DNA of 52,475 nt, taken from the NCBI GenBank assembly GCA_964510015.1, contig CAZEAA010000004.1, positions 1 to 52,475 on the forward strand. Reading direction: 5' to 3'. Made by a program: the position numbers and the translations under genes. Source of the DNA: an uncultured Sandaracinaceae bacterium. Its GTDB lineage: Bacteria; Myxococcota_A; Polyangia; Polyangiales; Houyiibacteriaceae. The notes under the pieces are model-generated. The model did not search any database and was not told the DNA's origin. It saw only the letters and a program-made list of their open reading frames with translations. Positions 8,707 through 49,600 of this stretch are shown here, in pieces (the first letter of the stretch is position 1; each line of letters opens with the position of its first letter).

Positions 8707-8716
8707 CGGAGACGCC

Positions 8717-9613: not shown

Positions 9614-9629
9614 GGCGCGCCGGGGGGCC

Positions 9630-18470: not shown

Positions 18471-18491
18471 GATGCACGAGGTGACCGCGAC

Positions 18492-23275: not shown

Positions 23276-23285
23276 ACGCTCGCCC

Positions 23286-24488: not shown

Positions 24489-24528
24489 ATCCGAGCGCCC
24501 GGGCAATCCCTTCCATCGCAGAATCGCA

Positions 24529-24592: not shown

Positions 24593-24653
24593 CACCGTTC
24601 CAACCCGAGAGGGCCCACCAAGCCCGAGGTTCGTTACCGTCAACCCAGCGCCC

Positions 24654-26300: not shown

Positions 26301-26361
26301 GGTGACCCGGAGGGAGCGTCTTGGGGCATGGCGCGCCCCCCGGCAAGTCACGCACGCAGGC

Positions 26362-27876: not shown

Positions 27877-27934
27877 CCCCGTTATACCCAGCACCGGCGC
27901 GACTGGATACGCTCTCACTGTACGGCGCGGTGCG

Positions 27935-28369
27935 TCAGTCGGCCGAGCAAGGCCCGTCGTACGGCGTCATGGTCAGCACCCGCGTGACGCGGAACCCCTG
28001 CGCGCCCTCGAGCACCTCCACCCACAGGTTGTGGCGCATGCTCCGGCCGTAGGCGTGCACCTCGATGCAGCGCGTGCCCCACTCGACCGTGGTGCCCACC
28101 GCTTGGAACGACGTGCTGTCGTGCACGATGTTGAAGGCCGGCGTGCTCTCCCCGCGCTCGCCCCGCACCACGCGGAGCGCGTCGCCCTCGGCGCGTTCGG
28201 CGGCCGCCGGCGACTCGGCCTTGACCTCCTCCAAGAAGGCGACCACCAGCTCGGCCTGAGGCTTCGCGCGGTATTGGGCCACCCAGTAGGCCACGGCCAG
28301 CGCCGCGGCGAGCGCCAACAGAAACCAGACAGGACGCGGCACCAGAGGTGGGAGCTCGTCTTCAGCCAT
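27935..28369 (-). CDS. Small N-terminally anchored protein, unknown function (144 aa)
   Basis: One TM segment (VWFLLALAAALAVAYWV) followed by a balanced, coding-like sequence. The competing overlapping frame is Arg/Pro-rich. Confidence 0.5.
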   Translation of the reverse strand: MAEDELPPLVPRPVWFLLALAAALAVAYWVAQYRAKPQAELVVAFLEEVKAESPAAAERAEGDALRVVRGERGESTPAFNIVHDSTSFQAVGTTVEWGTRCIEVHAYGRSMRHNLWVEVLEGAQGFRVTRVLTMTPYDGPCSAD

Positions 28370-28491
28370 GATGGGTCACCCTTAGCCCGTCCCACTCGGA
28401 CGGTGTGTTCCCAGTGTAAGTCGAGGTCGGACGAGATATCAAACTGTGCGTGGCTGGCCCACCTGCTTCGCGTCTGTCAGCCTGCGCCGCG

Positions 28492-29490: not shown

Positions 29491-29532
29491 GCCCGCGGGC
29501 GCACCGCCGGGAGCCGATGACGCGGCGCCCCG

Positions 29533-30567: not shown

Positions 30568-31079
30568 GACCGCTCCGAGGGCGGTAGCGCGCCCGAGTCC
30601 ATGAAGTGGCGGATGGCGTCGAACAGCGGCCCCTCACGGAGCGCCGGCTCGGCCACACCCGCCGCGGCGCGCACCTGCGCCGCGAGGCGCTCGAGACCCG
30701 CCGACAGCTCGCGCTCGTCCCACACCACCACCACGCCCGGACGCTCGCCGAAGCGCCGCGCGGTGGCGAGCTGATGGTCGTTGCGGGTCTCGCGCAGCTC
30801 CGCGCGACGCGGCAGCACCAGCACGGGCTTGCCCCGCTCGAGGGCCGCGAAGAGGGTGCCGATGCCCGCGTGCCCCACGAGCGCGTCGGCCTCGTCGCAC
30901 GCTCGCTCGAAGCGCGCAGGCTCGAGGAAGCGCTGCGCCCGGAGGTGAGGCGTGGCCAGCGTGGTGTCGCCCACCTGCGCCGTGACGCGCGCGCTCGGGT
31001 TCGCCGCCGCCCACGCATCCATGGCCTGCACGAGGCGGTCGAAGGGCATCTGCGCGCCCACCGTGAGGAGCAGCTTCAT
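30564..31079 (-). CDS. Alg13-like glycosyltransferase catalytic subunit (Glyco_tran_28_C type; 171 aa)
   Basis: Start at MKLLLTVGAQMPFDRL, with an ATGA overlap with the Alg14-like gene. Motif HAGIGTLFAALERGKPVLVLPR..NDHQLATA. Confidence 0.8.
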   Translation of the reverse strand: MKLLLTVGAQMPFDRLVQAMDAWAAANPSARVTAQVGDTTLATPHLRAQRFLEPARFERACDEADALVGHAGIGTLFAALERGKPVLVLPRRAELRETRNDHQLATARRFGERPGVVVVWDERELSAGLERLAAQVRAAAGVAEPALREGPLFDAIRHFMDSGALPPSERS

Positions 31080-31579
31080 CCGAGCACGCTCCCCGCGAAG
31101 CGCGGGCCGCCGGGGCGCGCCAGCTCGGGCCACTGCGTGAGCCACAGGTCCGCGAAGCGCCCCACCTTCTGCCCGCTCATGCTGAGCTCGTCCACGTTGG
31201 CCAGGCTGTCCACCCAGATGGTCCGGGCGCCGAGCGCGCGCCCCAGCACCACGCCGAAGAAGCCGGGCAAGGCGCCCGTGCTGACCACCACGTCGGGGCG
31301 CTCGTCCAGCAGCACGCGCAGCACCTGCGTGGCGCAGCGCAGCATCCCGAGGCGATCCCAGCGGGTGGTGTCCGGCACCACGCGCAGCGGCGCGTCGCCC
31401 ACGTGGGCTCGGTAGGCCTCGTCCACCGTCACGAACACCATGAAGTGCCCGTCGAAGGCGGGCCGCAGGCGCAGCAGCTCCACGAAGTGCCCGCCCCCCG
31501 AGCTGATGGCGAGCACCTTCTGACGGCGGCGTCCTTCGGCGCTCGCGGCGGCGCTCGCGCTAGCGTGACGACGGCTCAT
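31076..31579 (-). CDS. Alg14-like membrane-associated glycosyltransferase subunit (167 aa)
   Basis: Motifs VLAISSGGGHFVELL, VVVSTGALPG, IWVDSLANVDELSMSGQ. Pairs with the Alg13-like gene, as in PssD/PssE and Cps14F/G. Confidence 0.85.
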   Translation of the reverse strand: MSRRHASASAAASAEGRRRQKVLAISSGGGHFVELLRLRPAFDGHFMVFVTVDEAYRAHVGDAPLRVVPDTTRWDRLGMLRCATQVLRVLLDERPDVVVSTGALPGFFGVVLGRALGARTIWVDSLANVDELSMSGQKVGRFADLWLTQWPELARPGGPRFAGSVLG

Positions 31580-31581: not shown

Positions 31582-33636
31582 TCAGCCCGCGAAGCCCGAG
31601 AGGAATTCGTCCACGTTGCCGGCTCGGTCGTTCTGGCGAGCCACCGCGTCCGACACCGCCAGCAGCGCGAAGGCCACGCCGCCGTCGAGGGCCAGCTCAC
31701 GCCGCACCCGCCGCAGCTCGGAGGCCTTGATGCCCGCCCCCACCAGGACGATCACGCCATGCGAGCGGCGCGCCGCGCGACGCAGACCGGCGACGCCGCG
31801 CGGGCCGTCCCAGGTGCAGGTGCGGACCCGCAGCGCGTGCGTGATACGGATGCCCCCCGTCTCATCGTTCGCCAGCACCGAGGTGAAGCCACCGGACGGG
31901 CTCACGCGCGGGCGCCGCGCCATGGGCAAGACGTTCCCGATGACGTGACGCTCCGGCTCGCCGGGCACGCTCGGGGGGTGCGTGGACACACTGCCGGCAC
32001 CCGTCTGCGCGCTGCGCACGGGGGCCATCACGGTCTCGTTCTCTTCCTGGAGCACCCCGCGCCAGGTCTGACGGATGACCAGCGTGAGCATCTCGGCCAG
32101 CTGCCGCTCGACCTCCGTGGCGCCCACCAGCAAGAGCTCGCCGCGCTTCTCGCCCATGAGCGCCTCGAGGTCGGCCAGGAGGTCTTCGAAGGCCTCGCTG
32201 TTGCGCGGCCAGCTGGAGGTGGCCACCACCGGGCCCTCACCCCACCAAGCGATCTCCGTTGGCGCGATCAGCCGCAGCCCGTTCAGGTCGCGCCCCACCA
32301 CCACCAGCAGCGCCAGCAGGCCGAAGATCAACGGCACGCCCAGCGCGATGAGCTTCTTCTTCTTCGACGGGACCGCGTTCTCGGGCGGGATGGCGTTCGA
32401 CACCGTGCGGAAGCCGGTGGGGATGTCGTGCAGCTGGTCGTCGATGGTGGCGGCGCGCTCGGTCAGGCTCTCCACCAGCGCACCCTTCACGTTCACCTGC
32501 GCCAGCAGGCTCGCGGCCTGCGACTCGATGTCGCTGAAGCGGTTGCCACGCTCCTCGGCCGCCGTGGCCAGCTGCTCGAGGGTGGTCTGGCGGGAGACCA
32601 GGGTCTCGAGCTCGGTCTGTGCCGTCTCGAGGCTGGTGCGGCGCGCGGACGAGACGCCCCCCGACCCGCCACCGCTGCCGGACGTGGTCCCCGAGGCGTC
32701 CTCCGCTGAACCCTCGCGCTGCTGCCGCTCGAGCGCGGCGACCTGCCGCTGGAGCGACTGGATCTGCGGGTGCGAGTCGCCGAGGCCCTGCCCGCGCGCC
32801 TCGCGCAAATGCTGGCGGAGCTCCACCAAGCGCGCGTCTTCGATGCGTCGGCTGGCGCTGTTCGCGCCGCTGCTGCTGCTGGTGCCGGTGCCCCGCGAGC
32901 GTGAGGCCCCTTCGATGGACGCCGTCAGCTGACGCACCCGCGCGCGCGCCGCCTCCACCTCCGCGGCGGCCAGGGTGGCCTCGGTGCGCAGCTGCGCGGC
33001 CTGCGCGATGACCTGCGACTGCTCCACGTTCATCTCGCTGATGCCGTGCTCCGAGCGGAACGTGTCGTAGGCGGTGCGCGCGTCGTTCAGCTCCACGGCC
33101 GTGGCGGCGATGCGCTCCGACACGCTGGCCTGCTCGGTGCGCAGCGAGGCCTCGCGTTGCTCCGTGATGTGCTGCAGGAAGAGCACCACCGCGTCGTTGG
33201 CCAGCGCGGCCGCCTGCTCGGGCGTCTCACCGTATGCGTTGAAGCTGATCTGACGCGTGCCCTGGTCGGCGGACACCTGCAAGATCGCGCGCATGGCGTC
33301 CACGTGGATGCGCTGGAGGCCCGCGCGCTCGCGCATCTCGAGCACGAAGCGGTCGGTGAGCGCCACCGAGGCGAGCGAGGGCAGGTCCTGCTGCGCCTCG
33401 AGGAAGCTCTGGCCGGGGAGGCCTTCGTAGCGCACCACGGCCGACGTCAGGTACGCGCGGCCGATCACGAACTTGGCCACCACGACGCCGATGACGAGGC
33501 CCACCAGCGCCGCGCCGAGCACCCACTTCTTCCCGCGCCAGACCACGCGGACCAGGCGACCGAGATCGAGCGGCGAGCCGGGCCGCTTCGTGCCGCCCTC
33601 CTCGTCATCCATGTCTTGTTGTGATCGTGGGCTCAT
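31582..33636 (-). CDS. Polysaccharide co-polymerase (Wzc-like PCP) with a degenerate C-terminal kinase-like domain (684 aa)
   Basis: TM1 at about aa 38-56, a long coiled-coil periplasmic region, and TM2 at about aa 429-447. The C-terminal 234 aa has an EAF segment but no GxxxxGK[ST] and no Tyr at all. Confidence 0.8.
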   Translation of the reverse strand: MSPRSQQDMDDEEGGTKRPGSPLDLGRLVRVVWRGKKWVLGAALVGLVIGVVVAKFVIGRAYLTSAVVRYEGLPGQSFLEAQQDLPSLASVALTDRFVLEMRERAGLQRIHVDAMRAILQVSADQGTRQISFNAYGETPEQAAALANDAVVLFLQHITEQREASLRTEQASVSERIAATAVELNDARTAYDTFRSEHGISEMNVEQSQVIAQAAQLRTEATLAAAEVEAARARVRQLTASIEGASRSRGTGTSSSSGANSASRRIEDARLVELRQHLREARGQGLGDSHPQIQSLQRQVAALERQQREGSAEDASGTTSGSGGGSGGVSSARRTSLETAQTELETLVSRQTTLEQLATAAEERGNRFSDIESQAASLLAQVNVKGALVESLTERAATIDDQLHDIPTGFRTVSNAIPPENAVPSKKKKLIALGVPLIFGLLALLVVVGRDLNGLRLIAPTEIAWWGEGPVVATSSWPRNSEAFEDLLADLEALMGEKRGELLLVGATEVERQLAEMLTLVIRQTWRGVLQEENETVMAPVRSAQTGAGSVSTHPPSVPGEPERHVIGNVLPMARRPRVSPSGGFTSVLANDETGGIRITHALRVRTCTWDGPRGVAGLRRAARRSHGVIVLVGAGIKASELRRVRRELALDGGVAFALLAVSDAVARQNDRAGNVDEFLSGFAG

Positions 33637-33646: not shown

Positions 33647-38320
<4,674 letters not shown>

Positions 38321-38335: not shown

Positions 38336-39370
38336 TCAGCGCGGGTTCGTGCTGATCACCGCGGCGCCCAGTCCGGTGGTGGCCGCCACGCTCACCAGCG
38401 GCGCGATGGCCGACATCACGTCGCGCAGCTTGGAGAGCCCGCTGGCCCCCACGTAGACCACGTCGCCGGGCGCGAGGAGGGGATCGGGCCCCGTGCCCTC
38501 CAGCAGCTCGTCGAGGCGCGCGACGTAGACCTGCGGTGCGGCGTGGTCACCGCGCACCACGATGATCTCGGCGTGGTCCGCGTCGCGCGTAGGGCCGCCC
38601 GCGAAGGCGAGCGCGAGCGTGAGGCGCAGGCCCGGGCGGAACGGCATGACGCGCGCGGCGTTCACTTCCCCCAGCACGCTCACGAGCGAGTGCACGGCGG
38701 GCGGAACGTAGAGGTGGTCGCCCGGGCGCAGGCGCACGTTGTGCCGCGGGTCCCCCGTGATGGCGAGCGCGAGGCTGACGGGCAGCACCTGACCGTTGCG
38801 CACGAGCCGCGCGCCCTCGACGTCGGTCATGGAGACGGAGACTCCGTCGGTGTCTTCGCTGATGCCGCCTCCCGAGAGCGCGAACAGGTCTGCGAGGCGC
38901 ATGCCGGGCACCACGGTGTGACGTCCGGGCGTGGTGACCGCGCCGATCACCGTCGCGCGCTGACCGTTGGGCGCCGCGACGATGATGGTCACGCGCACCG
39001 TCTGATCGAAGGGCCGCATGGCCGTCTCGATACGGCCCTCGGCGTCGGTCAACGACAGGCCGGCCACGTCCACGTCGCCCGCGAGCGGCACGTGCAGCAC
39101 GCCGCGCTCGTCCACCGTGAGGCCCAGGACGGCAGACTCGGTGCCGCTGATCATCTGCAGGTTCACCACGTCGCCGGGCATCAGCGTGAGCGCCAGCGGC
39201 GGGTCTTCGTCGAGGCCCGTCAGCGCCGAGGGCGCTGCCTGTACGAATCCAGTTTCGGCGGATGGCGTGGTGGGAAGGGGCGGAAGCGAGCTCCCGCATC
39301 CGGCGCTGACGACGCCGAGCAGCGTGGCCAGCATCGCATAACGTGGGCCGGTATACGGGGATGTAGGCAC
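38336..39370 (-). CDS. Outer-membrane polysaccharide export lipoprotein (Wza-type OPX; 344 aa)
   Basis: GTG start at 39370. Lipobox VVSAGC. Poly_export-like LMPGDVVNLQM, then SLBB-like repeats (VIGAVTTPGRHTVVPGMRLADL; VLGEVNAARVMPFRPGLRLTLA), and a hydrophobic C-terminal helix. Confidence 0.85.
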   Translation of the reverse strand: MPTSPYTGPRYAMLATLLGVVSAGCGSSLPPLPTTPSAETGFVQAAPSALTGLDEDPPLALTLMPGDVVNLQMISGTESAVLGLTVDERGVLHVPLAGDVDVAGLSLTDAEGRIETAMRPFDQTVRVTIIVAAPNGQRATVIGAVTTPGRHTVVPGMRLADLFALSGGGISEDTDGVSVSMTDVEGARLVRNGQVLPVSLALAITGDPRHNVRLRPGDHLYVPPAVHSLVSVLGEVNAARVMPFRPGLRLTLALAFAGGPTRDADHAEIIVVRGDHAAPQVYVARLDELLEGTGPDPLLAPGDVVYVGASGLSKLRDVMSAIAPLVSVAATTGLGAAVISTNPR

Positions 39371-39589
39371 CGCACCTAGCTAGCGCTGAACTTGACCGGC
39401 GGCAAGGCGCCCAACGTGATCTTTTACCGTGAAACAGGCTCGTTGCGGCCCGCTCAGGGGGTCTCGTGCGCTTGGAGTGGATTTCACTCTCACCGTCAAG
39501 TTTCTGCGCGGCGCTCAAGAATTTAGTGGCCGGATCGGAGAGAGTGACCCAAGGTGCCCCCGTGTAGTTTTTCGCCTACGCCGCCCCCT

Positions 39590-41026
39590 ATGCCCCTCTT
39601 CGACCCCACCAAGACCGGCATCATCCGCCCCTACCACTCCATGCTGACGCTGGTGCAGCGTGCGCTGGATGTCGTGATGATCGTCGTCGCGCTGTGGCTG
39701 ACGATGGTGGCCTTGGAGGATCTGAGGGCCCCCGACCCGTGGCACATCCACGACACGCTGGCCGCCGGCGCGGCCTCGCTGCTCTTCCTCTTCGCGGCCG
39801 ACGCCTGCGGTCTGTACGAGGGCTTCCGCGGCGTGCCCATGGTGCAAGAGCTCAAGCGCGTGTGGCTGGCCTGGTTCATCGTCTTCGCCGGGCTGCTGAT
39901 GCTGGCCTTCGCGTTGAAGGAGTCGGCCACCTACAGCCGCGCCGTGGCCTTCGGCTGGATGCTCGGCGCGCCGCTGCTGGTGAGCGTGTGGCGCGCGCTG
40001 GTGCGCCTCGCCCTGCACGAAGCGCGGCGCCGCGGCCACAGCACGCGTCGCGTGGCCATCGTGGGCATGACGCAGCTCGGTGAGCGCGTCGCGCGCAGCA
40101 TCAACGGCGCGCCGTCGCTCGGCCTGCACTTCGAGGGCTTCTACGACGACCGCAAGGAAGACCGCCGCCACGCCATCGGCGCCGAGGTGGGGGACTACGC
40201 GGGCACCTTCGACGAGCTGGTGGCGCGCGCCACGCTGGGCGACCTCGACCTGGTGTACGTCTGCTTGCCGCTGCGCGCCGAGTCGCGCGTGCACAAGCTC
40301 ATCGCCGAGCTGGCCGACACCACCGTGAGCGTCTACGTGGTGCCCGACTTCTTCGTGTTCGACCTGCTGCACGCGCGCTGGACCTCGCTCGGCGACATCC
40401 CGGTGGTCAGCATCTTCGAGACGCCCTTCATGGGCACCGAGGGCTGGCTCAAGCGCTTCGAGGACATCGTGCTCGGCACGCTCGCCGTGCTGGTGGCCGC
40501 CATCCCCATGGCCATCGTGGCCATCGGCATCAAGCTCACCAGCAAGGGCCCCGTGCTCTTCAAGCAGCGGCGCTACGGCCTCCATGGCGAGGTCATCGAC
40601 GTCTACAAGTTCCGCTCCATGACGGTGGCCGAAGACGGCACCAACGTGAAGCAGGCCACCGCGAACGACAGCCGCATCACGCCCTTCGGCGCGTTCCTGC
40701 GGCGCACCTCGCTGGACGAGCTCCCGCAGCTCTTCCACGTGGTCTCGGGCAGCATGAGCCTGGTGGGCCCGCGCCCGCACGCCGTCGCGCACAACGAGGC
40801 CTACCGCAAGCACATCTACGGGTACATGCTGCGCCACAAGGTCAAGCCGGGGCTCACGGGCTGGGCGCAGGTCAATGGCTGGCGCGGTGAGACCGACACG
40901 CTCGAGAAGATGGAAAAGCGCATCGAGCACGACCTCGAGTACATCCGCCGGTGGAACCTCCTGCTCGACATCAAGATCGTGTTCCTGACCATCTTCGGTC
41001 GCGCGGTGCATCAGAACGCGAAGTGA
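39590..41026 (+). CDS. Undecaprenyl-phosphate hexose-1-phosphate transferase (WcaJ-type large PHPT; 478 aa)
   Basis: Four N-terminal TM segments and a central Rossmann-like domain ([11 protein letters not shown]). C-terminal catalytic domain: [45 protein letters not shown]. Alternative GTG start at 39554 (GGAGAGAG 9 nt upstream). Confidence 0.9.
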
Positions 41027-41040
41027 GCCGGGTGGGCCGC

Positions 41041-42027
41041 ATGTCCCGCCGCAAGACCCTCGGGGTGCTGCTCGCGCTGGGCTCGGCGTTGCTGGGCGGA
41101 GTGGGCCTCGCCGTGAGCCGGCGCGTGCACAAGCTGTGGGTCATCCCCGAGGCACCCAGCCGCAGCATGAGCACGGCCGCCTGGGCCGAGACGCCGCCGG
41201 TGCAAAGCCTGCACGTGCTCTTCGTGGGCCACAGCCTGGTGAACCAAGACATGCCCGCCATGGCGCGCGGGGTGGCGGCCAGCCTCGGCGTGGACCTCAC
41301 CTACGACGTGCAGCTCATCGACGGTGGCTCGCTCGCGGTGAACTGGAACCAGGCGCAGCGCGCCACCGGCGTGCGGGCACGCGAGGCGCTGCTCACCGGC
41401 GGCTACGACACGCTGGTGCTGACCGAGGCCGTGAACTTGGACGACCACCTGCGTTGGAGTGAGCCGAGCCATCACGCCGCGCTGTGGTACGCGCTCGCCC
41501 GCGAGCACCGGCCGGACGCGCGCCTCTTCTTCTACGAGACCTGGCACCACCGCGACCAACCGCGCCACGTGCGGGGCCTGCCGCTGGTGCAGAGCCGCAT
41601 GAGCTGGCGTGAGCACCTCGACGCGGACCTCGGCAAGTGGGAGCACATCGTGGACGAGGCGGAGCGCGAGTACGCGACCTTCCATGCGAGCACGCCGCTG
41701 CACGTGGACATCGTGCCGGGTGGCCAGGCGCTCGCGGCGCTGGTGGACGCGGTCCGCGCGGGGCAGGTGCCCGGCGTGCCGAACGAGGCCCTGCTGTTCC
41801 GCGACAACGTGCACCTCACCGACCTCGGCAACTACTTCATCGCGCTGGTGCAGGTGGCCACGCTGGCCCGTGTGAGCCTCGATGGTGCCACCAACCAGGT
41901 AACGCGCGGCGACGGGCAGTCGGTCGTGGTGCCAGCTGAGACCGCGCGCGCGCTCGCTCGCATTGCCCAGCGTGCGGTCCGCCTCTATCCCCGCTCGGGC
42001 GTGCTGAGCCCACCGGAGCCGAACTGA
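41041..42027 (+). CDS. Exported or anchored SGNH/GDSL-like protein, paralog of 22238..23275 (328 aa)
   Basis: N-terminal TM/signal (LGVLLALGSALLGGVGLAV). Motifs LFVGHSLVNQDM, LVLTEAVNL, FFYETWHHR, VPGGQALAALVDAVRAGQVPG and RDNVHLTDLGNYFIALV align segment by segment with the other copy. Confidence 0.6.
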   Translation: MSRRKTLGVLLALGSALLGGVGLAVSRRVHKLWVIPEAPSRSMSTAAWAETPPVQSLHVLFVGHSLVNQDMPAMARGVAASLGVDLTYDVQLIDGGSLAVNWNQAQRATGVRAREALLTGGYDTLVLTEAVNLDDHLRWSEPSHHAALWYALAREHRPDARLFFYETWHHRDQPRHVRGLPLVQSRMSWREHLDADLGKWEHIVDEAEREYATFHASTPLHVDIVPGGQALAALVDAVRAGQVPGVPNEALLFRDNVHLTDLGNYFIALVQVATLARVSLDGATNQVTRGDGQSVVVPAETARALARIAQRAVRLYPRSGVLSPPEPN

Positions 42028-42029
42028 TC

Positions 42030-45000
42030 ATGTCCGACGAATACGAAGTCATGGAGCGCGACATCGCCGTCGTCGGGATGGCGGCGCGGGTGCCCGGGGC
42101 CAACACGCCCGCCGAGCTGTGGAAGAACCTGGTGGGCGGTGTGGAGTCCATCCGGCAGTACAGCGAAGAGGAGCTGCGCGCGGCCGGCGAGAAGCCCGAG
42201 CTGCTGCGCCACCCGCGCTACGTGCGCGCCGCCGCCCCGCTCGCGGGGGTGCCCCTGTTCGACGGGGAGTTCTTCGGGTTCAGCCCGAAGGAGAGCGCCA
42301 TCATGGACCCGCAGCACCGGCACTTCCTCGAGTGCTCGTGGGAGGCCCTCGAGAACGCCGCCCATCCGCCCGAGCGCTTCAAGGGCCCCATCGGCGTGTT
42401 CGCCGGCTGCGGCATGGGCAGCTACTTCTACGTGAACGTCTGCTCGCAGGCCGAGCTGGTGCGCGACGTGGGCCTGTTCCTGCTGCGTCACACGGGCAAC
42501 GACAAGGACTTCCTCGCCACGCGCGTGAGCTACCTGCTGGACCTCGCGGGGCCTTCGGTGAACGTGCAGACGGCCTGCTCCACGTCACTCGTGGCCACGC
42601 ACCTCGCGGTGCAGAGCCTGCTCGCGCGCGAGTGCGACATGGCGCTCGCCGGCGGCGTCACCATCGAGCTGCCGCAGGACCGCGGCTACGTCTACCAAGA
42701 GGGCGAGGTGCTCTCGCCCGACGGACACTGTCACGCCTTCGACCACCGCGGTCAGGGCACCGTGTTCGGCAGTGGTGTGGGCGTGGTGGTGCTGCGCCGC
42801 CTGGGCGACGCGCTCGACGACGGCGACGTGATCCACGCCGTGATCCGCGGCACCGCCGTGAACAACGACGGCGCGAAGAAGGTGAACTACCTGGCGCCCA
42901 GCGTGGACGGACAGGCGGCCTGCGTGGTGGAGGCCCTGGGCGTGGCCAACGTGGACGCGCGTAGCGTGGAGTACATCGAGTGCCACGGCACCGGCACCGC
43001 GCTCGGCGACCCGATCGAGGTGGAGGCGCTCACGCAGGGCTTCCGCACGCAGACCGACGCGCGCGGCTTCTGTCAGCTCGGGTCCATCAAGACCAACATC
43101 GGGCATCTCGACACGGCTGCGGGGGTCATCGGGCTGATCAAGGCGTCGCTCGCGCTGCGCCATGCGCAGATCCCCGCGTCCCTCGGGTACGAGAAGCCCA
43201 ACCCCGCCATCGACTTCGCGAGCTCGCCGTTCCGGGTCGCGAGTCAGCTGTCGGAGTGGCCGGCCCCCGCGGCTCACCCGCGCCGCGCGGCCGTGAACTC
43301 GCTCGGCGTGGGCGGCACCAACGCGCACATCGTCTTGCAAGAGCCACCCGGCCTGCCCGACGCCGAGCCACCCACGCGCCCCGTGCAGCTGCTCACGCTG
43401 TCGGCGCGCACGCGCAGCAGCTTGGACGCGCAGAGCCAGCGGCTCGCCGAGCACTTCACCGCACACCCGGACCTGTCCCTCGCGGACGCGGCCTTCACGC
43501 TGCACCACGGGCGCCGTGAGTTCGCGGAGCGGCGCGTGGTGGCGGCGGCATCGCTCGCCGAAGCGGCCGAGCTGCTGCGCACGGGCGACCCGCAGCGGGT
43601 GTTCACGCACAGCGTGCTGCGCGGCAAGACCGAGAGCGGCGCCCCGCACGTGGCCTTCCTGCTGCCAGGCGGCGGCGCGCAGTACGCGCGCATGACGGTG
43701 GACCTCTTCGAGCACGAGCCCGTGTTCCGCGAGCACATGGAGCGCGGCTTCGCGCTCTTGCAGGAGCGCCATCAGGTGGACCTTCGCCCGCTGCTGTACC
43801 CCGCGCGGGGGCAAGAGGCCGCGGCCGACGCGGAGCTGACGCCCATGAATCGGCAGCTGCCCGCCATCTTCCTCACGAGCGTGGCCATGGCGCGCCTGTT
43901 CGAGAGCTGGGGCGTCACCCCGAGCGCGTACCTCGGTCACAGCGTGGGCGAGAACACCGCCGCGCACTTGGCTGGCGTGATGACGCTCGAGGACTGCCTG
44001 GGCCTGGTCATGCTGCGCGCTCAGCTCTTCATGGAGACGCGGCCGGGCGCCATGCTGTCCGTCACGCTGTCCGAAGCCGAGGTGCGCGCGCTCCTGCCCA
44101 GCACCCTGGACCTCGCCGTGGTCAACGGCCCGAGCGCCTGCGTGGTGTCGGGCGATCCGGAGGCCATCGCGGCGATCGAGGCGCAGCTCGCCGGGCGCGA
44201 GGACGTGGAGACGCAGCGCTTGGCCATCCCGGTGGCGGCGCACTCGCGCCTGCTCGACCCGATCCTCGAGCGCTTCACCGCGTACCTCTGCAGCATTCGC
44301 CTGCGCGCGCCCAGCGTGCCCTTCCTGTCCAACCGCAGCGGCACGTGGATCACCGACGCCGAGGCCACGGATCCCACCTACTGGGCCAGCCACCTGCGCA
44401 GCGCGGTGCGCTTCGGGGACAACGTGGACGCGCTCTTGCAGCGCGGCCCGAGCGTGCTGCTGGAGGTGGGCCCCGGCCGCGCGCTCAGCTCGCTCGCGCG
44501 TCAGCACGCGGGCTTCCGCGCGGGGGGCCATCAGGCCATCGCGTCGGTGCGGCACAAAGACGAGGTGGTCTCGGACGTCACCTACTTCACCGCCTGCCTC
44601 GGCCGGCTGTGGGCCACCGGCGCCGCGCTCGACTGGGCGCCCATGTGGCCGGGCGAGCTGCGCTCGCGCGTGGAGCTGCCCACCTATGCGTGGGACCACA
44701 AGAGCTTCTTCATCGAGCCCGCGCTGCCCGTGAACGCGCCCAGCGAGCAGGCGCTCGAGAAGCTGCCCGACGTGCGCAGCTGGGGCTTCGTGCCGCGCTG
44801 GAAGCCCTCGCTCGCGGACCTTCCGCTCGAGGGCAGCGAGCCCGACGCGCCGCGCACCTACCTGCTGTTCATGGACCGGGGTGGCGTGGGGCAGCGCCTG
44901 CGTCAGCGCCTCACCCAAGCGGGCCAGCACGTGGTCGCGGTCTACGAAGGCGACGCCTTCCATCACCGCGGCAACGACGAGTACACGCTCAGCCCGGAGC

Positions 45001-48000
45001 GCGGGCGCGAGGGCTATGCCTCGCTGATCACGGACCTGGTGGAGCGCGGGCGCACGCCGGAGCGCGTGGTGCACCTGTGGCTGCTCGAGGCCGAGCAGAC
45101 GTTCCGTCCGGGCTCGAGCCTCTTCCACCACCACCTCGAGCGCGGCTTCTTCAGCCTCTTCTTCCTGGCCAAGGCGCTGGTGGACGCCAGCATCGCGAAC
45201 GTGCACCTCACGGTGATCGGCGATGGCCTCGTGCGCGTGGTCGACGAAGCGCTGCCCGACCCGCAGAAGGCCACCGTGCTCGGTCCGGTGAAGGTGCTGT
45301 CGCGCGAGCTCGAGGGCGCGAGCGCGCGGCTGGTGGACGTGCAGCTGCCGGCCCAGCGCAGCCAGCTCTTCGGTGGCTCGCTGCGCGCGGGCTTGCTCGA
45401 CCCGTTCGGTGGCAAGAAGCGGGTGGAGCAGGAGCTCGACGCGCTGACCGAACGCTTGGTAGATGAAGTGCGCGCCGCGGCGGGCGACGAAGTGGTGGCG
45501 CTGCGCGGTGACCGGCGCCTCACGCAGGTGCTGGCTCCGCGGGCGCTCGAGGAAGTCGCCGGCCCGAACGGCATGCCCACTCCAGAGGCCGCTGCTGGTC
45601 TCGGGAGACCCGAGTATGGGAGCACTCTCGGAAAGCCCGAGACCCTGCGCGAGCGCGGCGTCTACCTGATCACCGGCGGCCTCGGCGGCCTGGGCCTCAC
45701 CGTGGCCGACTACCTGGCGCGCACGTGTCACGCACGCCTCGCGCTGCTGGGACGCACGCCGCTGCCCGCGCGCGACCAGTGGCTCGCGTGGATCGCGCAG
45801 CACGGCGCGGGGGACCGCGTGAGTCAGCGCATGCAGCGCGTGCTGGACCTCGAGGCGAGCGGCGCCGAGGTGCTGGTGCTGACGGCGGACGTCACCAACC
45901 GCGAGGAGATGCAGGCCGCGCTCGGCACGCTGCACGCGCGCTTCGGGGCGCTGCACGGCGTGTTCCACACGGCCGGCGAGCTGGACGACGACCTCATCGC
46001 GCTCAAGACGCTCGAGAGCGTGGAGCAGGTCTTCGCGCCCAAGATCCAGGGCACGCGCATCCTGCACGAGCTGACCGCCGAGAGCCGCCTCGACTTCATG
46101 CTGCTCTTCAGCTCCACCTCCACGGTCACCGCGCCCGCGGGGCAGGTGGACTACGTGGCCGCCAACGCCTTCCTCGACGCATTCGCCGAAGGCCAGCGCG
46201 CCGCGGGCTCGCCGGTCACCTCGCTGCACTGGGGCATCTGGGCCGACGTGGGCATGGCCGCCGAGCCTGGGCGCCTGCGGGCTCACGCGCGCGTGGGTGA
46301 CCGGGTGGGGCAGCAGCCCACGCACCCGTGGCTGAGCGCGCGCGTCAGCGACGGCCGCGGCGAGTCCAGCCTGCGCGGCACGCTGTCGTCCGCGCAGCAC
46401 TGGATCCTGGACGGGCACCGCACGCTCGCCGGCCACGCGCTGATCCCCGGCACCGGCTACCTCGAGCTCGCGCGCGCCGCGCTGCGCGCCTACGGCGAGA
46501 CGGGGCCGTTCGAGATCGAGGACCTCTTCTTCGTCCGCCCCTTCGCGGTGGCCGATGGCGAAGCCCGTGAGCTGTTCGTAAAGCTGCGGCCCACCGCGCG
46601 GGGCTATCGCTTCGAGGTGCGCGGGCACGTCAGCGTGGGTGGCCGGGCAGGCACGGTGCTCATCGCGCAGGCGCACCTGGCGCTGCAGCTCGCCGCCGCC
46701 CCGGCCGACCTCGGCGCGGCGGAGCTCGCCGACATCGAGGCGCGCTGCACCACGAGCCATCTGGGACCTGTGGGCCCCGACGAGAGCGGCCTGCGCACGG
46801 CGCAGGAGGCGCACCTGCGCTTCGGGCCGCGCTGGCGCGTGCTGCGCGAGGCGCACCTCGGCCGCACCGAGGGCATCGCGCGCTTGGCGCTGCCGCCGCC
46901 GTTCACCGCCGAGAGCAGCGAGTTCGGCCTGCACCCCGCCCTGCTCGACATCGCCACCGGCTGGGCCATGTCCCTGATCGAAGGCTACGACGCGAGCACC
47001 CTCTACGTGCCCGTCTCCTACGAGCGCGCGCGCGTCTACCACGACCTCACGCCGCAGCTGCTGAGCTGGGTGCGCACGCCCGTGGTGAACCACGCCGACG
47101 CGGAGTTCGTGTTCTTCGACGTCACGCTCATGGACCCGAGCGGCAGGGTGCTCATGGAGGTGGAGCGCCTCGGCCTCCGGCGCATGAGCGGCGGCCCGGA
47201 CTTCGCGCTCGGCGGGCGCGTGGCGCCGACGGACGTGACCTTCCACGAGGACAGCAGCGAGCACGCCCCCTCGCCCGGTGAGGCGCTGCGCGACCGGCTC
47301 TTGCAGCAAGGCATCCGCACGGCCGAAGGCCAGGACGCCCTCGGCCGCGTGCTGCAGCAGCTCGCGCCGAAGTCTGGCGGGGCGCCCGCGCAGATCTTCG
47401 TGAGCTCCATGGACCTCCCCACGCTGGTGAAGCAGAGCAGCGCGGGCGAGAAGGCGCGCAGCGCCGGAGCCGGGCTCGAGCTGGCGCGCCCGGACCTGGG
47501 CGTGGACTACGTGGCCCCGCGGGACGAGGTGGAGAAGACGCTGGTGGGCTTCTGGCAAGAGCTGCTGGGCGTGGACCAAGTGGGCGTGCAGGACAGCTTC
47601 TTCGACCTCGGCGGTCACTCGCTCTTGGCGGTGCGCCTGTTCGCCAAGATCAAGTCGGCCTACCGCGTGGAGTTCCCCATCTCGGTGCTGTTCGAGGCGC
47701 CCACCATCGAGCGCTGCGCGGCGCTCTTGCGCGAGCACCTCGGGCCGCAGACCGACGTGGAAGGCAGCGCGGACGTGAGCGCGCCGAGCACCGCCGCGCG
47801 CCCGCGCTACACGCACCTCGTGGCCATGCACACCGGCGACGGAGGGCCCAAGACGCCCTTCTTCCTGGTGGCCGGCATGTTCGGCAACGTGCTCAACCTG
47901 CGGCACCTCGCGCACCTGGTGGGCACCGACCGGCGCTTCTACGGCCTGCAGGCGCGCGGCCTCTACGGGGAGCAAGCGCCGCACGAGACCTTCGAAGAGA

Positions 48001-48656
48001 TGGCCGCCGAGTACATCGCCGAGCTGACCAGCGTGCAGCCCCGCGGGCCCTACTTCCTGGGCGGCTTCTCGGGTGGCGGCATCACGGCCTACGAGATCGC
48101 GCGGCAGCTCGAGGCGCGCGGCGAAGAGGTGGCGCTGCTGGTCATGCTGGACACCCCGGTGCCCATGCCGCCGGCTGACCTGAGCCTGCGCGACCGCGTC
48201 TTGATCCAGCGCTCCGAGCTGCGCTCGAAGGGCCCCGCGTACGTGGCCGAGTGGGCCGAGCGCCGCGCCGCGTGGGAGCTCGGCAAGCTGCGCCGTCGCT
48301 TCGAGAGCGCCACGCCGGACAACACGCCCGAGAAGTTCCACGACGAGGCCATCGAGCAGGCGTTCCGGCGCGCGCTCGGCCGCTACGTGGTGGCCCCCCG
48401 CAAGCACGCCGCGGTGCACCTCTTCCGCCCCAAGCTGCCGGTGGCCTACGACCTCGGCGAGGGCCGCCGCATCAACCACGAGCGCTCCTACGTGTTCGAG
48501 GACAACGGCTGGACCCCCTTCGTGCGCGAGGTGGTGGTGGCCGAGGTGCCGGGTGACCACGACTCCATGGTGCTCGAGCCCAACGTGCGCGTGCTGGCGC
48601 GGCGCCTGCGCGAGGTGGTGGAGCAGGCGGAAGCGGCGCAGCGGAGGTCGCGATGA
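42030..48656 (+). CDS. Single-module type I polyketide synthase, KS-AT-(psi-KR)KR-DH-T-TE (2208 aa)
   Basis: Domain evidence, with approximate residues and window coordinates:
- KS, aa about 10-436 (42057-43337): QTACSTS, ECHGTGT, NIGHLD.
- AT, aa about 541-860 (43650-44609): GHSVGE, Arg in VMLRAQ, VAAHS.
- KR, aa about 940-1410 (44847-46259): YLITGGLGGLG, LDD, PKIQG, DYVAANAF.
- DH, aa about 1431-1720 (46320-47189): HPWL, LDGHRTLAGHALIPGTGYLE, LHPALLD.
- T, aa about 1828-1905 (47511-47744): [12 protein letters not shown], Ser codon at 47619-47621.
- TE, aa about 1940-2200: GGFSGGG, MLDT, GDHDSM. Confidence 0.95.
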   Translation: MSDEYEVMERDIAVVGMAARVPGANTPAELWKNLVGGVESIRQYSEEELRAAGEKPELLRHPRYVRAAAPLAGVPLFDGEFFGFSPKESAIMDPQHRHFLECSWEALENAAHPPERFKGPIGVFAGCGMGSYFYVNVCSQAELVRDVGLFLLRHTGNDKDFLATRVSYLLDLAGPSVNVQTACSTSLVATHLAVQSLLARECDMALAGGVTIELPQDRGYVYQEGEVLSPDGHCHAFDHRGQGTVFGSGVGVVVLRRLGDALDDGDVIHAVIRGTAVNNDGAKKVNYLAPSVDGQAACVVEALGVANVDARSVEYIECHGTGTALGDPIEVEALTQGFRTQTDARGFCQLGSIKTNIGHLDTAAGVIGLIKASLALRHAQIPASLGYEKPNPAIDFASSPFRVASQLSEWPAPAAHPRRAAVNSLGVGGTNAHIVLQEPPGLPDAEPPTRPVQLLTLSARTRSSLDAQSQRLAEHFTAHPDLSLADAAFTLHHGRREFAERRVVAAASLAEAAELLRTGDPQRVFTHSVLRGKTESGAPHVAFLLPGGGAQYARMTVDLFEHEPVFREHMERGFALLQERHQVDLRPLLYPARGQEAAADAELTPMNRQLPAIFLTSVAMARLFESWGVTPSAYLGHSVGENTAAHLAGVMTLEDCLGLVMLRAQLFMETRPGAMLSVTLSEAEVRALLPSTLDLAVVNGPSACVVSGDPEAIAAIEAQLAGREDVETQRLAIPVAAHSRLLDPILERFTAYLCSIRLRAPSVPFLSNRSGTWITDAEATDPTYWASHLRSAVRFGDNVDALLQRGPSVLLEVGPGRALSSLARQHAGFRAGGHQAIASVRHKDEVVSDVTYFTACLGRLWATGAALDWAPMWPGELRSRVELPTYAWDHKSFFIEPALPVNAPSEQALEKLPDVRSWGFVPRWKPSLADLPLEGSEPDAPRTYLLFMDRGGVGQRLRQRLTQAGQHVVAVYEGDAFHHRGNDEYTLSPERGREGYASLITDLVERGRTPERVVHLWLLEAEQTFRPGSSLFHHHLERGFFSLFFLAKALVDASIANVHLTVIGDGLVRVVDEALPDPQKATVLGPVKVLSRELEGASARLVDVQLPAQRSQLFGGSLRAGLLDPFGGKKRVEQELDALTERLVDEVRAAAGDEVVALRGDRRLTQVLAPRALEEVAGPNGMPTPEAAAGLGRPEYGSTLGKPETLRERGVYLITGGLGGLGLTVADYLARTCHARLALLGRTPLPARDQWLAWIAQHGAGDRVSQRMQRVLDLEASGAEVLVLTADVTNREEMQAALGTLHARFGALHGVFHTAGELDDDLIALKTLESVEQVFAPKIQGTRILHELTAESRLDFMLLFSSTSTVTAPAGQVDYVAANAFLDAFAEGQRAAGSPVTSLHWGIWADVGMAAEPGRLRAHARVGDRVGQQPTHPWLSARVSDGRGESSLRGTLSSAQHWILDGHRTLAGHALIPGTGYLELARAALRAYGETGPFEIEDLFFVRPFAVADGEARELFVKLRPTARGYRFEVRGHVSVGGRAGTVLIAQAHLALQLAAAPADLGAAELADIEARCTTSHLGPVGPDESGLRTAQEAHLRFGPRWRVLREAHLGRTEGIARLALPPPFTAESSEFGLHPALLDIATGWAMSLIEGYDASTLYVPVSYERARVYHDLTPQLLSWVRTPVVNHADAEFVFFDVTLMDPSGRVLMEVERLGLRRMSGGPDFALGGRVAPTDVTFHEDSSEHAPSPGEALRDRLLQQGIRTAEGQDALGRVLQQLAPKSGGAPAQIFVSSMDLPTLVKQSSAGEKARSAGAGLELARPDLGVDYVAPRDEVEKTLVGFWQELLGVDQVGVQDSFFDLGGHSLLAVRLFAKIKSAYRVEFPISVLFEAPTIERCAALLREHLGPQTDVEGSADVSAPSTAARPRYTHLVAMHTGDGGPKTPFFLVAGMFGNVLNLRHLAHLVGTDRRFYGLQARGLYGEQAPHETFEEMAAEYIAELTSVQPRGPYFLGGFSGGGITAYEIARQLEARGEEVALLVMLDTPVPMPPADLSLRDRVLIQRSELRSKGPAYVAEWAERRAAWELGKLRRRFESATPDNTPEKFHDEAIEQAFRRALGRYVVAPRKHAAVHLFRPKLPVAYDLGEGRRINHERSYVFEDNGWTPFVREVVVAEVPGDHDSMVLEPNVRVLARRLREVVEQAEAAQRRSR

Positions 48657-49600
48657 AGCTGCTGTGCGTGATCCTCAACTACAAGACCGCGGACATGACG
48701 CTGGACGCCATCCGCGCTGCCCGGGCCGCGCTCACCACGCTCGACCACCGCATCGACGTGGTGGACAACGACTCGCAGGACGGCTCGTTCGAGAAGCTTT
48801 GGAGCGCTGTGGCCGACGCGGGCTGGCCCGACGTGCGCGTGGTGCAGAGCGGGCACAACGGCGGCTTCGGCGCCGGCAACAACGTGGCCCTGCGCGCGGC
48901 GCTGCTCGAGCCCGACCCACCCGAGTTCCTCTACATCCTGAACTCCGACGCGTTCCCGGCGCCCGATGCGATCACAGCCCTGGTGCAGTTCCTGGAGACG
49001 CACCCGCGCGCGGGCATCGCCGGCAGCTTCATCCACGGCCCCGACGGCGACCCGCACCTCACCGCCTTCCGCTTCCCCAGCATGGCCAGCGAAGCGCTCA
49101 GCGGCTTCCGTCTCGGCGTGCTGCAGCGGCTCTTGCCCGACCGCGAGGTGCCCATCCACCCCATGCCCAGCGCCACGCAGCGCGTGCCCTGGCTGGCGGG
49201 CGCGTCCATGATGTTCCGCCGCGAGCTGCTGCAAGAGATCGGGCTCTTCGACGAGACGTTCTTCCTCTACTTCGAGGAGACCGACCTGTGCCGCCGCGCC
49301 CAGCTCGCCGGCTGGGAGTGCTGGTACGTGCTGGAGAGCCGCGTGGCCCACATCGGCAGCGTGTCCACCGGCATGAAGAACAAGGGCCGCCCCATGCCGC
49401 GCTACTGGTTCGACAGCCGCCGCCACTACTTCACCAAGAACCACGGCGCGGCCTACACGTGGGCCGCCAACGTCCTGCACGCGGCGGGCCTCGCCACGTT
49501 CAAGGCGCGCGCGGGGCTGCAGGGGAAGCCGGATCCCGACCCGGTGAACTTCCTGCGCGACTTCGCGAAGTACAACTTCGTGGAGCGCCGCCCGCGGTAG
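48653..49600 (+). CDS. Family-2 glycosyltransferase (rhamnosyltransferase-like; 315 aa)
   Basis: ATGA overlap with the PKS stop. Motifs LCVILNYKT, VVDNDSQDGS, GHNGGFGAGNN, LNSDA, FFLYFEETDLCRR. Confidence 0.85.
   Translation: MKLLCVILNYKTADMTLDAIRAARAALTTLDHRIDVVDNDSQDGSFEKLWSAVADAGWPDVRVVQSGHNGGFGAGNNVALRAALLEPDPPEFLYILNSDAFPAPDAITALVQFLETHPRAGIAGSFIHGPDGDPHLTAFRFPSMASEALSGFRLGVLQRLLPDREVPIHPMPSATQRVPWLAGASMMFRRELLQEIGLFDETFFLYFEETDLCRRAQLAGWECWYVLESRVAHIGSVSTGMKNKGRPMPRYWFDSRRHYFTKNHGAAYTWAANVLHAAGLATFKARAGLQGKPDPDPVNFLRDFAKYNFVERRPR

Follow-up and report, generated by a model that had tools for sequence, protein, structure and literature searches.

A widespread hybrid NRPS-like/polyketide synthase cassette in a surface-polysaccharide locus of an uncultured Sandaracinaceae bacterium

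We analysed a 52,475-nucleotide stretch of DNA from an uncultured Sandaracinaceae bacterium (assembly GCA_964510015.1, contig CAZEAA010000004.1; this whole stretch is called the window), in which the gene of a single-module type I polyketide synthase (PKS) stands between that of a WcaJ-type polyprenyl-phosphate hexose-1-phosphate transferase (PHPT) and that of a family 2 glycosyltransferase (GT2). We found that these genes, with one for an SGNH-fold protein, are one arm of a surface-polysaccharide locus of ~31 kb (about 18.2-49.6 kb), and that this locus took up a widespread and conserved hybrid cassette in which the PKS is partnered by a module of the nonribosomal peptide synthetase (NRPS) type. 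From this gene context we consider it an evenly balanced proposition that the cassette makes a glycoconjugate with a unit of NRPS/PKS origin. The comparisons below come from a tblastn scan of species-representative genomes for relatives of the PKS and from 85 PKS-centred loci; a count of neighbouring genes covers 66 full-length loci.

The four-gene arm and its assembly line

The genes of the PHPT (39590-41026), the SGNH-fold protein (41041-42027), the PKS (42030-48656) and the GT2 (48653-49600) follow one another in the list of open reading frames (ORFs), all on the + strand. Direct reading of the sequence agreed in every detail with the coordinates, strand and junctions of the preliminary description of this DNA: the PHPT gene stops with TGA at 41024-41026 and the next ATG follows at 41041 after a 14-nt gap, the SGNH gene stops at 42025-42027, 2 nt before the PKS ATG at 42030, and in the ATGA at 48653-48656 the GT2 start overlaps the PKS TGA, by which the two genes are translationally coupled. 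The high GC content of the window (~71%) fills the raw ORF list with spurious frames, and genuine genes were therefore picked by third-position GC content (GC3) and codon-phase plot; the four genes have a GC3 of 0.92-0.97, as is typical of genuine genes here. A sequence scan, itself weak evidence, found no sigma-70-like promoter within the four-gene block, and a weak hairpin lies ~80 nt 3' of the GT2 stop. Upstream, 219 bp of lower GC (39371-39589, GC 0.61) separate the PHPT gene from a divergent arm that begins with wza, and are likely the shared promoter region of both arms; the same scan detected no consensus promoter in them. The identical gene order is found in a Sandaracinaceae metagenome-assembled genome (L005), whose PKS is the nearest named relative (81% identical) and in which both arms are syntenic, and the PKS-GT2 adjacency is seen in 62 of the 85 loci, in several phyla. 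Because the order is kept in this relative and the adjacency in so many loci, the four-gene arrangement exceeds chance.

The PHPT (478 aa, 4 predicted transmembrane (TM) segments) matches Pfam Bac_transf (5.8e-65) and CoA_binding_3, and scores 532 bits against the NCBIfam model TIGR03023 (WcaJ_sugtrans, cutoff 411), which makes it an undecaprenyl-phosphate glucose phosphotransferase equivalog and upholds the WcaJ-type label given to it earlier. In the 2208-aa PKS, Pfam matches and motif reading give the order ketosynthase (KS), acyltransferase (AT), pseudo-ketoreductase (psiKR), B-type ketoreductase (KR), dehydratase (DH), a carrier resembling a peptidyl carrier protein (PCP), and thioesterase (TE). 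The KS begins at residue 10, and there is thus no loading domain. The motifs comprise the Cys-His-His of the KS, GHSxG plus Arg in the AT, the Tyr of the B-type KR with an LDD-type Asp, His/Asp in the DH, a PCP-like 'GGHSL' with its Ser in the carrier and, in the TE, GxSxG with an intact triad; the PKS does have its own TE, as the preliminary description held. Ten members from four phyla or classes, when aligned, show no variation at any catalytic residue, and more than 100 full-length homologues (52-91% identity) all have the same Pfam domain set. The carrier and TE are NRPS-like, with the GGHSL motif and an EntF-like character, and NCBIfam gives a partial PfaA match; the PKS has no enoylreductase (ER) domain. 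For the KS-AT region the best PDB matches are 8xju and 8xjz, in complex with a 'peptide synthetase'; we traced no paper for either entry.

Three features of the PKS are unusual and are kept family-wide. The psiKR-KR pair stands before the DH (residues ~917-1722), an order like that of PfaA and the enediyne PKSs and unlike that of modular PKSs; the AT specificity motif 'VAAH' (residues 733-740) is atypical; and the DH motif reads HxxxxGxxxxP in place of HxxxGxxxxP.

The conserved partner of the PKS is FAP (33647-38320, - strand, 1557 aa; Pfam, TIGR04020), an NRPS-like initiation module encoded on the opposite strand, 3.7 kb from the PKS start, between wza and the gene of a Wzz-domain co-polymerase. 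It consists of a formyltransferase (F) region (Formyl_trans_N/C) with intact motifs, a ~260-aa truncated linker resembling a condensation (C) domain, an AMP-binding adenylation (A) domain of glycine type into which a luciferase-like monooxygenase is inserted, and a PCP. Core motifs A4 and A5 flank the monooxygenase (MOx) insert, which scores 486 bits against NCBIfam TIGR04020 (MupA/Atu3671 family, cutoff 244). The best PDB matches are LgrA, an F-A-PCP initiation module, and for the insert the luciferase-like monooxygenase (LLM) of PuwE. The specificity code of the A domain, DILQMGMIW(K), is near the canonical glycine code, as read from an alignment to a GrsA reference fragment. A Shine-Dalgarno sequence precedes the gene, and spacing in the divergent arm is tight: wza and FAP are 15-33 nt apart, according to which start codon is taken, with 10 nt between FAP and the co-polymerase gene, and 2 nt between the latter and an Alg14-like gene.

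Across the compared loci FAP is present in 72 of 85. In 11 of these, from Planctomycetota, Acidimicrobiia and Gammaproteobacteria, it stands immediately upstream of the PKS, that is in the colinear NRPS-to-PKS order FAP-PKS(-GT2), and in 55 the order is PKS-GT2-FAP. A PKS that starts with its KS and has FAP as a conserved partner therefore belongs to a hybrid NRPS-like/PKS line, and the view of the PKS as a stand-alone producer of a polyketide or lipid, taken in the preliminary description, is not supported by its KS-first layout, missing loader and conserved partner.

The GT2 (315 aa; Pfam Glycos_transf_2) is a soluble enzyme of GT-A fold. Its best NCBIfam matches are MftF, a rhamnosyltransferase and HpsN, and automated names of its homologues are WbbL-like; no PDB sequence match was found, and the Foldseek neighbours of its AlphaFold 2 model (pLDDT 88.9) are generic GT-A folds, uninformative on the acceptor. 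Identity as a polyprenyl-phosphate glycosyltransferase of the ArnC/GtrB/DPM1 type was considered and rejected, given that the protein has no TM segment and that MftF and rhamnosyltransferase models fit it best. A pathway on the Arn pattern (formyltransferase, ArnC-type GT2, ArnD-type deacetylase, ArnT-type GT-C) was likewise set aside for a GT2 that has no TM helices. An orthologue occurs in 69 of the 85 loci, in 62 of them less than 600 nt downstream of the PKS, and the enzyme is 58-60% identical between Myxococcota and Rhodobacteraceae; with the adjacency kept across phyla, this supports a functional coupling of PKS and GT2, as had been supposed.

The 328-aa protein encoded before the PKS has no Pfam and no NCBIfam match, and all 49 of its 49 homologues are annotated 'hypothetical'. 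An AlphaFold model from a 23-sequence alignment (pLDDT 93.3, pTM 0.89) has an N-terminal membrane helix (residues 3-33), and its Foldseek neighbours are DUF4886 (E 4.6e-9), GDSL lipases, CE3 carbohydrate esterases, the peptidoglycan O-acetyltransferase PatB and the acyltransferase SsfX3. In the same 23 sequences G63-H64-S65-L66 (block I Ser) and D255-x-x-H258 (block V) are invariant, as are G95 and T128-E129, which were considered for the oxyanion residues (block II Gly, block III Asn). Fold and residues (Ser65, Asp255/His258) confirm the earlier SGNH-like label, and the model makes this cassette member a candidate glycan acyl-esterase or acyl-transferase. A second SGNH-fold protein is encoded at 22238-23275 (+); it is a paralogue of the first (BLASTP 36% identity, E 7e-42), GHSL and DxxH being common to both, and it cross-matches the tandem SGNH pair that roseobacter loci have downstream of the cassette. 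SGNH homologues lie downstream of the FAP gene in 29 of the 85 loci, usually as a tandem pair after the gene of an Sfp-type phosphopantetheinyl transferase (PPTase), and a Sulfitobacter homologue has a weak Pfam DUF4886 match.

Distribution and glycan neighbourhood of the cassette

At least 532 relatives of the PKS are found in species-level genomes, the majority in Rhodobacteraceae and others in Myxococcota, Planctomycetota, Acidimicrobiia, Gammaproteobacteria and Rhizobiales, and full-length copies also occur on plasmids and chromids. As judged from homology, the widespread cassette comprises the PKS, the GT2 and FAP, often with the PPTase and SGNH paralogues. The PPTase gene is present in 62 of the 85 loci, a Wzy-like ORF with 9-10 TM segments stands directly upstream of the PKS in 38, and WecG and a Wzx-type flippase are found in 33 and 26, respectively. 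A second GT2 (GT2b) encoded in the window (28450-29490, +; Pfam) is the orthologue of a GT2 that many roseobacter loci carry ~3.7 kb upstream of their PKS; it has tblastn matches in 32 of the 85 loci, at a median identity of 53%, and is not paralogous to the PKS-linked GT2. In Sulfitobacter the genes of the PKS, GT2, FAP, PPTase, an SGNH protein and an 837-aa protein overlap by 4 nt. In Sulfitobacter mediterraneus (L060) the last of these (23670-26183) has an SGNH-paralogue N-terminus fused to ~550 aa without Pfam match, and the ORF with 9-10 TM segments directly upstream of the PKS (8239-9696) has a sub-threshold Wzy_C match; ORFs of both types also occur in ~30-38 other roseobacter loci.

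This distribution leads to a known gene set. A conserved Roseobacter PKS/NRPS cluster goes back to Martens et al. 2007 and, as later papers describe it, consists of a PKS, a glycosyl transferase, an NRPS and a PPTase (PMC4337385, PMC5014874); it was counted in 28 of 57 genomes (PMC4337385). The window PKS aligns over its full length with Leisingera, Ruegeria, Sulfitobacter, Shimia and other loci at 46-54% identity (tblastn), and roseobacter loci have exactly the order PKS-GT2-NRPS-PPTase, with an NRPS-like gene of ~1540 aa. By homology and layout the window cassette is this orphan cluster, which in 2023 was still called novel and without a MIBiG relative (PMC10584327).

What recurs around the cassette is glycan assembly. 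At least one of Wza, a polysaccharide co-polymerase, Wzx, PHPT, a Wzy-like protein and WecG is encoded within 10 kb in 60 of the 66 full-length loci, a raw count that takes no account of how often such genes occur in random 26-kb stretches of these genomes. In a Pfam census of flanking genes from 17 loci outside the Rhodobacterales, the sole recurrent families were GT1, GT2, GT4, WecG, Wzx, PPTase and PHPT, and in 19 Rhodobacterales loci we counted GT2 (11), PPTase (10), Wzz (9), CbiA/ParA P-loop proteins (7/5), Wzx, WecG and GT1 (6 each), epimerase (4) and PHPT (3), with Wzz/kinase genes in about half of the loci. These counts are lower bounds, the GC3-based ORF caller being poor in mid-GC genomes, and tblastn with the Wza and co-polymerase of the window, which matched few loci, likewise underestimates the association.

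Single loci give the same picture in differing gene orders. The flanks hold GT1, GT2, WecG, a deacetylase, PMT_2, UbiA and PHPT in Hydrogenophaga; glycosyltransferases and Acyl_transf_3 (AT3) in Amaricoccus; Wzx, GT2 and Wza in Planctomycetota; and Glyco_tranf_2_4, GT2b, WecG and a Wzy-like protein in Sulfitobacter. On a Ruegeria plasmid they hold AT3 acyltransferases, DegT, glycosyltransferases, PHPT and UbiA/GtrA/DprE-like genes, and on an Aminobacter plasmid a Wza-type exporter, an O-antigen-ligase family member and a BcsQ-like ATPase; FAP runs divergently from the PKS there, an orientation also seen in the window. In one Myxococcota locus (L010) PKS, GT2, Wza and FAP follow on one strand beside a Wzz-domain gene. 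The cassette thus lies persistently within lipid-linked polysaccharide loci, and the glycan link is general and consistent across taxa and gene orders; on account of this persistent neighbourhood a glycoconjugate is favoured over a free polyketide.

Genes resembling those for decaprenyl-phospho-arabinose adjoin the cassette of two unrelated carriers, on the Ruegeria plasmid (L086, 29768-33682) and in Hydrogenophaga (L002, 2806-6038). They encode a UbiA prenyltransferase, GtrA/TMEM234-like small membrane proteins, an FAD oxidoreductase and SDR (DprE1/2-like) and a PMT_2 GT-C enzyme, and their homologies hint at a polyprenyl-phosphate-pentose donor in some versions of the cassette.

Proposed product, rival explanations and the rest of the window

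The simplest reading of the domain content is an assembly line that extends an amino-acid starter by a single C2 unit, which would give a small acyl unit and no lipid anchor. FAP would adenylate glycine, for which it has the glycine-like code, and load it onto its own PCP; its N-terminal F domain would N-formylate the glycine, as in LgrA, OzmO and CongA, and its luciferase-like monooxygenase may alpha-hydroxylate the tethered unit in the manner of MtaG/PuwE-type domains. The KS-first PKS would then accept the FAP starter for a single condensation with a malonyl-type extender, and its B-type KR and DH would leave a 4-(formamido)but-2-enoyl-type thioester on the PCP-like carrier. The TE might off-load this unit directly onto a sugar of a polyprenyl-diphosphate-linked intermediate, or as an acid that is glycosylated afterwards; the GT2 would add or extend a sugar at the PKS-derived unit, and the two membrane-anchored SGNH-fold paralogues, working at the membrane or periplasmic face, could trim acyl groups or pass them on. 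The glycan would be primed by the WcaJ-type PHPT and lengthened by the other glycosyltransferases, with the Wzz-domain co-polymerase and Wza as its route of export. The expected product would be a polysaccharide or lipid-linked oligosaccharide with a small glycine-plus-ketide substituent or end-group, and no free polyketide.

Extended to the Roseobacter cluster as a whole, our proposal is that it is a dedicated module which places a (formyl)glycine-plus-ketide substituent or end-group on Wzx/Wzy-type surface polysaccharides, with the TE and/or SGNH proteins off-loading it onto a sugar; this we put forward tentatively, at somewhat less than even confidence, and we hold the specific formylglycine-plus-one-ketide chemistry a little more loosely still. 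The covalent polyketide-glycan conjugate of the preliminary description survives in part: the conserved glycan context favours a glycoconjugate, and a covalent bond is inferred from gene context. Its candidate lipid-anchor or glycolipid product does not fare as well, as FAP and one module predict a small unit.

Several observations weigh against our proposal. The TE could merely hydrolyse its substrate, a small molecule released in this way could be what the GT2 glycosylates, and neither a condensation-type nor a known acyl-to-sugar transferase is present; motif reading found no HHxxxDG in the C-like linker of FAP. The AT motif VAAH permits no call of the extender unit, and the KR-before-DH order recalls iterative polyunsaturated fatty acid (PUFA) and enediyne synthases, so that the PKS may be used iteratively. 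Pfam searches, and tblastn with Wzx/Wzy-like queries from related loci and with three cassette PPTases, revealed no Wzx, Wzy or PPTase in the 52 kb, and within 10 kb of the PKS-GT2 pair FAP is absent in Sandaracinus amylolyticus (L001) and in a Myxococcales locus (L006). To these must be added that the neighbourhood count is a raw one and that the literature names no product of the Roseobacter cluster (PMC4337385, PMC5014874, PMC10584327).

A different explanation is that of an ordinary secondary-metabolite cluster in which FAP and the PKS make a small amino-acid/ketide acid, the TE releases it by hydrolysis and the GT2 converts it into a diffusible glycoside, the proximity to exopolysaccharide (EPS) genes being due to shared nucleotide-sugar supply, co-regulation at surfaces or history. 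We consider this unlikely, if by no means negligible. AntiSMASH-type analyses class the cluster as NRPS-T1PKS, and published work handles it as one for a secondary metabolite; the TE is a canonical type I enzyme with an intact triad, MftF among the NCBIfam relatives of the GT2 glycosylates a small cofactor, a major facilitator superfamily (MFS) transporter is encoded in the immediate flanks of the S. amylolyticus locus, and the cassette is also carried on plasmids and chromids. Against this, no metabolite has been assigned since 2007 in spite of how common the cluster is in well-studied roseobacters, and its recurrent neighbours are Wzx, Wzy-like proteins, Wzz/kinase, PHPT, WecG and Wza, not tailoring enzymes or efflux pumps. 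Moreover, wza is interleaved among the cassette genes in both the window and the Myxococcota locus L010, and membrane-anchored SGNH paralogues suit glycan processing. If instead the PKS worked iteratively in a PUFA- or enediyne-like manner, as has been proposed for WcbR and RkpA, it would make a long unsaturated acyl chain serving as lipid anchor or as the aglycone on which the GT2 starts a glycan. Such a role fits the KR-then-DH order without ER of the PfaA and enediyne layouts and the partial PfaA match, PKS genes thought to act in capsule loci have been described (PMC3908369), and PKS-GT2 is the most invariant adjacency, sometimes without a nearby FAP. It is nevertheless improbable in our view: a dedicated NRPS-like loader, which 11 loci have colinear with the PKS, is what non-iterative hybrid lines typically show, both carrier and TE have NRPS character (GGHSL, EntF-like), and since the PHPT already initiates on polyprenyl-phosphate, an alternative lipid primer is unnecessary.

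We regard it as highly improbable that there is no functional link at all and that a mobile NRPS/PKS cassette was inserted by chance into the EPS locus of this lineage. Plasmid copies and the many unrelated taxa do suggest horizontal transfer, and a transposase fragment lies beside the cassette in the Ruegeria plasmid and in Hydrogenophaga. However, the glycan association is found in at least five phyla or classes with differing gene orders and the GC content of the window is uniform. Insertion in one block would moreover not produce what the window shows, where the cassette genes are dispersed among wza, the co-polymerase gene and the PHPT gene with gaps of only 2-14 nt in the + arm and 2 to ~30 nt in the - arm.

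If the glycoconjugate proposal is correct, the cassette would define a new, thiotemplate-made class of glycan modification, and would be no secondary-metabolite cluster in more than 530 species-level genomes from at least five phyla or classes. Thiotemplate-built acyl units would then join the known bacterial glycan decorations, and could matter in the biofilm, algal-host and predator-prey surface interactions of roseobacters and myxobacteria. The cassette is among the most widespread NRPS/PKS sets of marine Rhodobacteraceae, and the question of its product, which dates from 2007, becomes testable: the comparative evidence redirects the search from organic culture extracts to EPS, capsular polysaccharide (CPS) and lipopolysaccharide fractions, identifies the full conserved set (the F-A(MOx)-PCP loader, PKS, GT2, two SGNH-fold proteins, GT2b and Wzy-like/Wzx/Wzz neighbours), and predicts glycine, a formyl group and one malonyl-type unit as building blocks.

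The divergent arm begins with a Wza-type outer-membrane polysaccharide export (OPX) protein (38336-39370, -; Pfam Poly_export and two SLBB domains), so that PHPT and Wza (OPX) are both present as in group-1-like EPS/CPS loci. The co-polymerase that follows FAP (31582-33636, -, 684 aa) has a Wzz domain (Pfam 6e-9) and an NCBIfam pepcterm_ChnLen match below cutoff. It has no CbiA/ParA/AAA match and no Walker A motif in a regular-expression search, and is thus not a demonstrable Wzc, which as a PCP-2a protein would end in a tyrosine autokinase, so that the 'Wzc' of the preliminary description is better called a Wzz-domain protein without detectable kinase domain. A coiled-coil region was noted in it; roseobacter loci often have Wzz plus CbiA/ParA kinase-type proteins beside the cassette instead. 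Next come an Alg14-like (PssD-type) glycosyltransferase subunit (31076-31579, -; Pfam Alg14, NCBIfam PssD/Cps14F 69 bits) and its Alg13-like partner (Glyco_tran_28_C; 30564-31145, -; codon-phase plot, Pfam 8e-5), the true start of which probably lies downstream of 31076. Further glycosyltransferases are a PMT_2/GT-C membrane protein (24654-26351, -; Pfam PMT_2, 10 TM), a GT1/GT4 enzyme (23250-24488, +; Pfam, NCBIfam EpsE-like below cutoff) and an EpsU-like membrane GT2 (20995-22215, +; Pfam, NCBIfam EpsU 242 bits, below cutoff; 3 TM). Among these genes, at 26362-30567 (-), lie those of three proteins of no clear function that are predicted to be secreted or anchored in the membrane: a CarboxypepD_reg protein (518 aa) and two ORFs, one of 144 aa and one of 344 aa, the latter having a signal-like helix at its N-terminus and matching no family.

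At its left end the locus holds a second carrier-protein system (18213-21055, +). This is formed by a small ACP/PCP-like carrier protein (18213-18470; ~85 aa, motif GLLNSLD, with a codon-phase signal and a homologue in the S. amylolyticus locus), a stand-alone DltA-like amino-acid adenylation enzyme (18492-20204; NCBIfam TIGR01733, 343 bits vs cutoff 317; code DLFSLCLIA(K)) and a polysaccharide N-deacetylase of PgaB/IcaB/HfsH type (20219-21055; Pfam Polysacc_deac_1 1.6e-17, NCBIfam). In S. amylolyticus (L001, 2384-5220) the trio recurs, 5-7.6 kb upstream of the PKS gene; by analogy it looks like Dlt-style aminoacylation of a de-N-acetylated sugar. The deacetylase was rejected as a general cassette member, being present in 2 loci only. 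Among the ORFs of the window no 4PPT_N/ACPS, Polysacc_synt or Wzy_C match was found with Pfam, and with no Sfp-type PPTase in the 52 kb the three carrier domains therefore depend on a PPTase encoded elsewhere. Multi-TM proteins without a Wzx or Wzy assignment are the PMT_2 protein and the ORF at 9630-11513. The latter is an unannotated 627-aa protein with 10 TM segments, and closes a + strand run (7561-11513) that starts with an uncharacterised 381-aa protein and an AurF-like diiron oxygenase. These first two are syntenic in S. amylolyticus (L001, 53-2166), where they lie directly 5' of the carrier/adenylation pair, and the run may belong to the pathway of the locus, for example by oxygenating a carrier-bound amino acid.

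Elsewhere in the window, an ORF of ~848 aa between CMD/SDR genes and the polysaccharide locus (15609-18155, -) contains nine MopE-type putative metal-binding motifs (PF11617, E 3e-66), and an AraC-family regulator is encoded at 11517-12497 (-). The region 560-5202 holds a TonB-dependent receptor (-) and a HAMP/PAS/Hpt histidine kinase (2630-4822, +) with an adjoining response regulator (4819-5202).

Comparison with known systems

The closest parallels to FAP are initiation modules of known assembly lines. In oxazolomycin and conglobatin synthesis, F-A(Gly)-PCP modules provide a KS with the formylglycyl thioester that it condenses with malonyl-CoA (PMC4504003). FAP shares the F-A-PCP order with OzmO, CongA and LgrA, and with OzmO and CongA also the glycine-type code and the presumed hand-over to a KS. 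Unlike in OzmO and CongA, the A domain of FAP is interrupted by a monooxygenase and is followed by a single PKS module with KR, DH and TE in a glycan context; no additional PKS and no oxazole-forming cyclodehydratase was found in the window or among the cassette-neighbour families. The interruption itself is like that in PuwE, the PDB match, and in MtaG and MelG, with an LLM of the TIGR04020 family between A4 and A5 of a glycine-type A domain. MtaG and MelG, which make myxothiazol and melithiazol, have an A domain with inserted monooxygenase in a terminal module that forms an amide by oxidative glycine cleavage. FAP differs from them in that it is an initiation module and has an F domain at its N-terminus.

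WcbR of Burkholderia and RkpA of Sinorhizobium, which we compared by description, are likewise large type I PKSs, each encoded singly among genes of polysaccharide synthesis and export. The wcb and rkp capsule loci are ABC-transporter-dependent, and their PKS is thought to supply a lipid. The window locus, whose annotated ORFs include no ABC-transporter gene, differs from them in its PHPT, Wza, Wzz-type co-polymerase, NRPS-like loader and TE. Considering that wcbR and rkpA are type I PKS genes inside capsule clusters holding synthesis and export genes (PMC3908369), and that the Roseobacter cluster has been known since 2007 (PMC4337385, PMC5014874), the earlier statement that PKS genes in Wza/Wzc/PHPT loci belong to no described EPS pathway was too broad; a PKS in a capsule locus is no new idea, and the cassette itself is not new either. 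Our literature search on PKS genes in Wza/Wzc loci returned nothing specific (this family is not covered by a 2026 paper on PUFA-type hybrid lipids), and found no paper that assigns a product to the cassette or ties it to polysaccharides.

The logic of an adenylating enzyme, a carrier and a membrane-anchored SGNH-fold protein is shared with the carrier-dependent acylation of cell-surface glycopolymers, namely Dlt D-alanylation and AT3/SGNH O-acylation as by OatA and PatB. The DltA-like enzyme and small carrier of the locus parallel Dlt, and PatB is a structural neighbour of the SGNH protein. Unlike in Dlt and AT3 systems, the acyl unit here would be PKS-built, and no MBOAT or AT3 translocase, nor a BY-kinase, was found in the window; AT3 stands beside the cassette in Amaricoccus and Ruegeria.

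With the Roseobacter cluster the window shares an orthologous PKS (46-54%), GT2 (58-60%) and F-A(MOx)-PCP NRPS in the same domain layout. It departs from it in having FAP on the divergent strand, a WcaJ-type PHPT and SGNH gene before the PKS, and no PPTase found in the 52 kb. Whereas the literature describes four genes of a presumed secondary metabolite, we find a larger conserved set (SGNH paralogues, GT2b, Wzy-like protein, WecG, Wzx and Wzz/kinase) that points to a glycan pathway.

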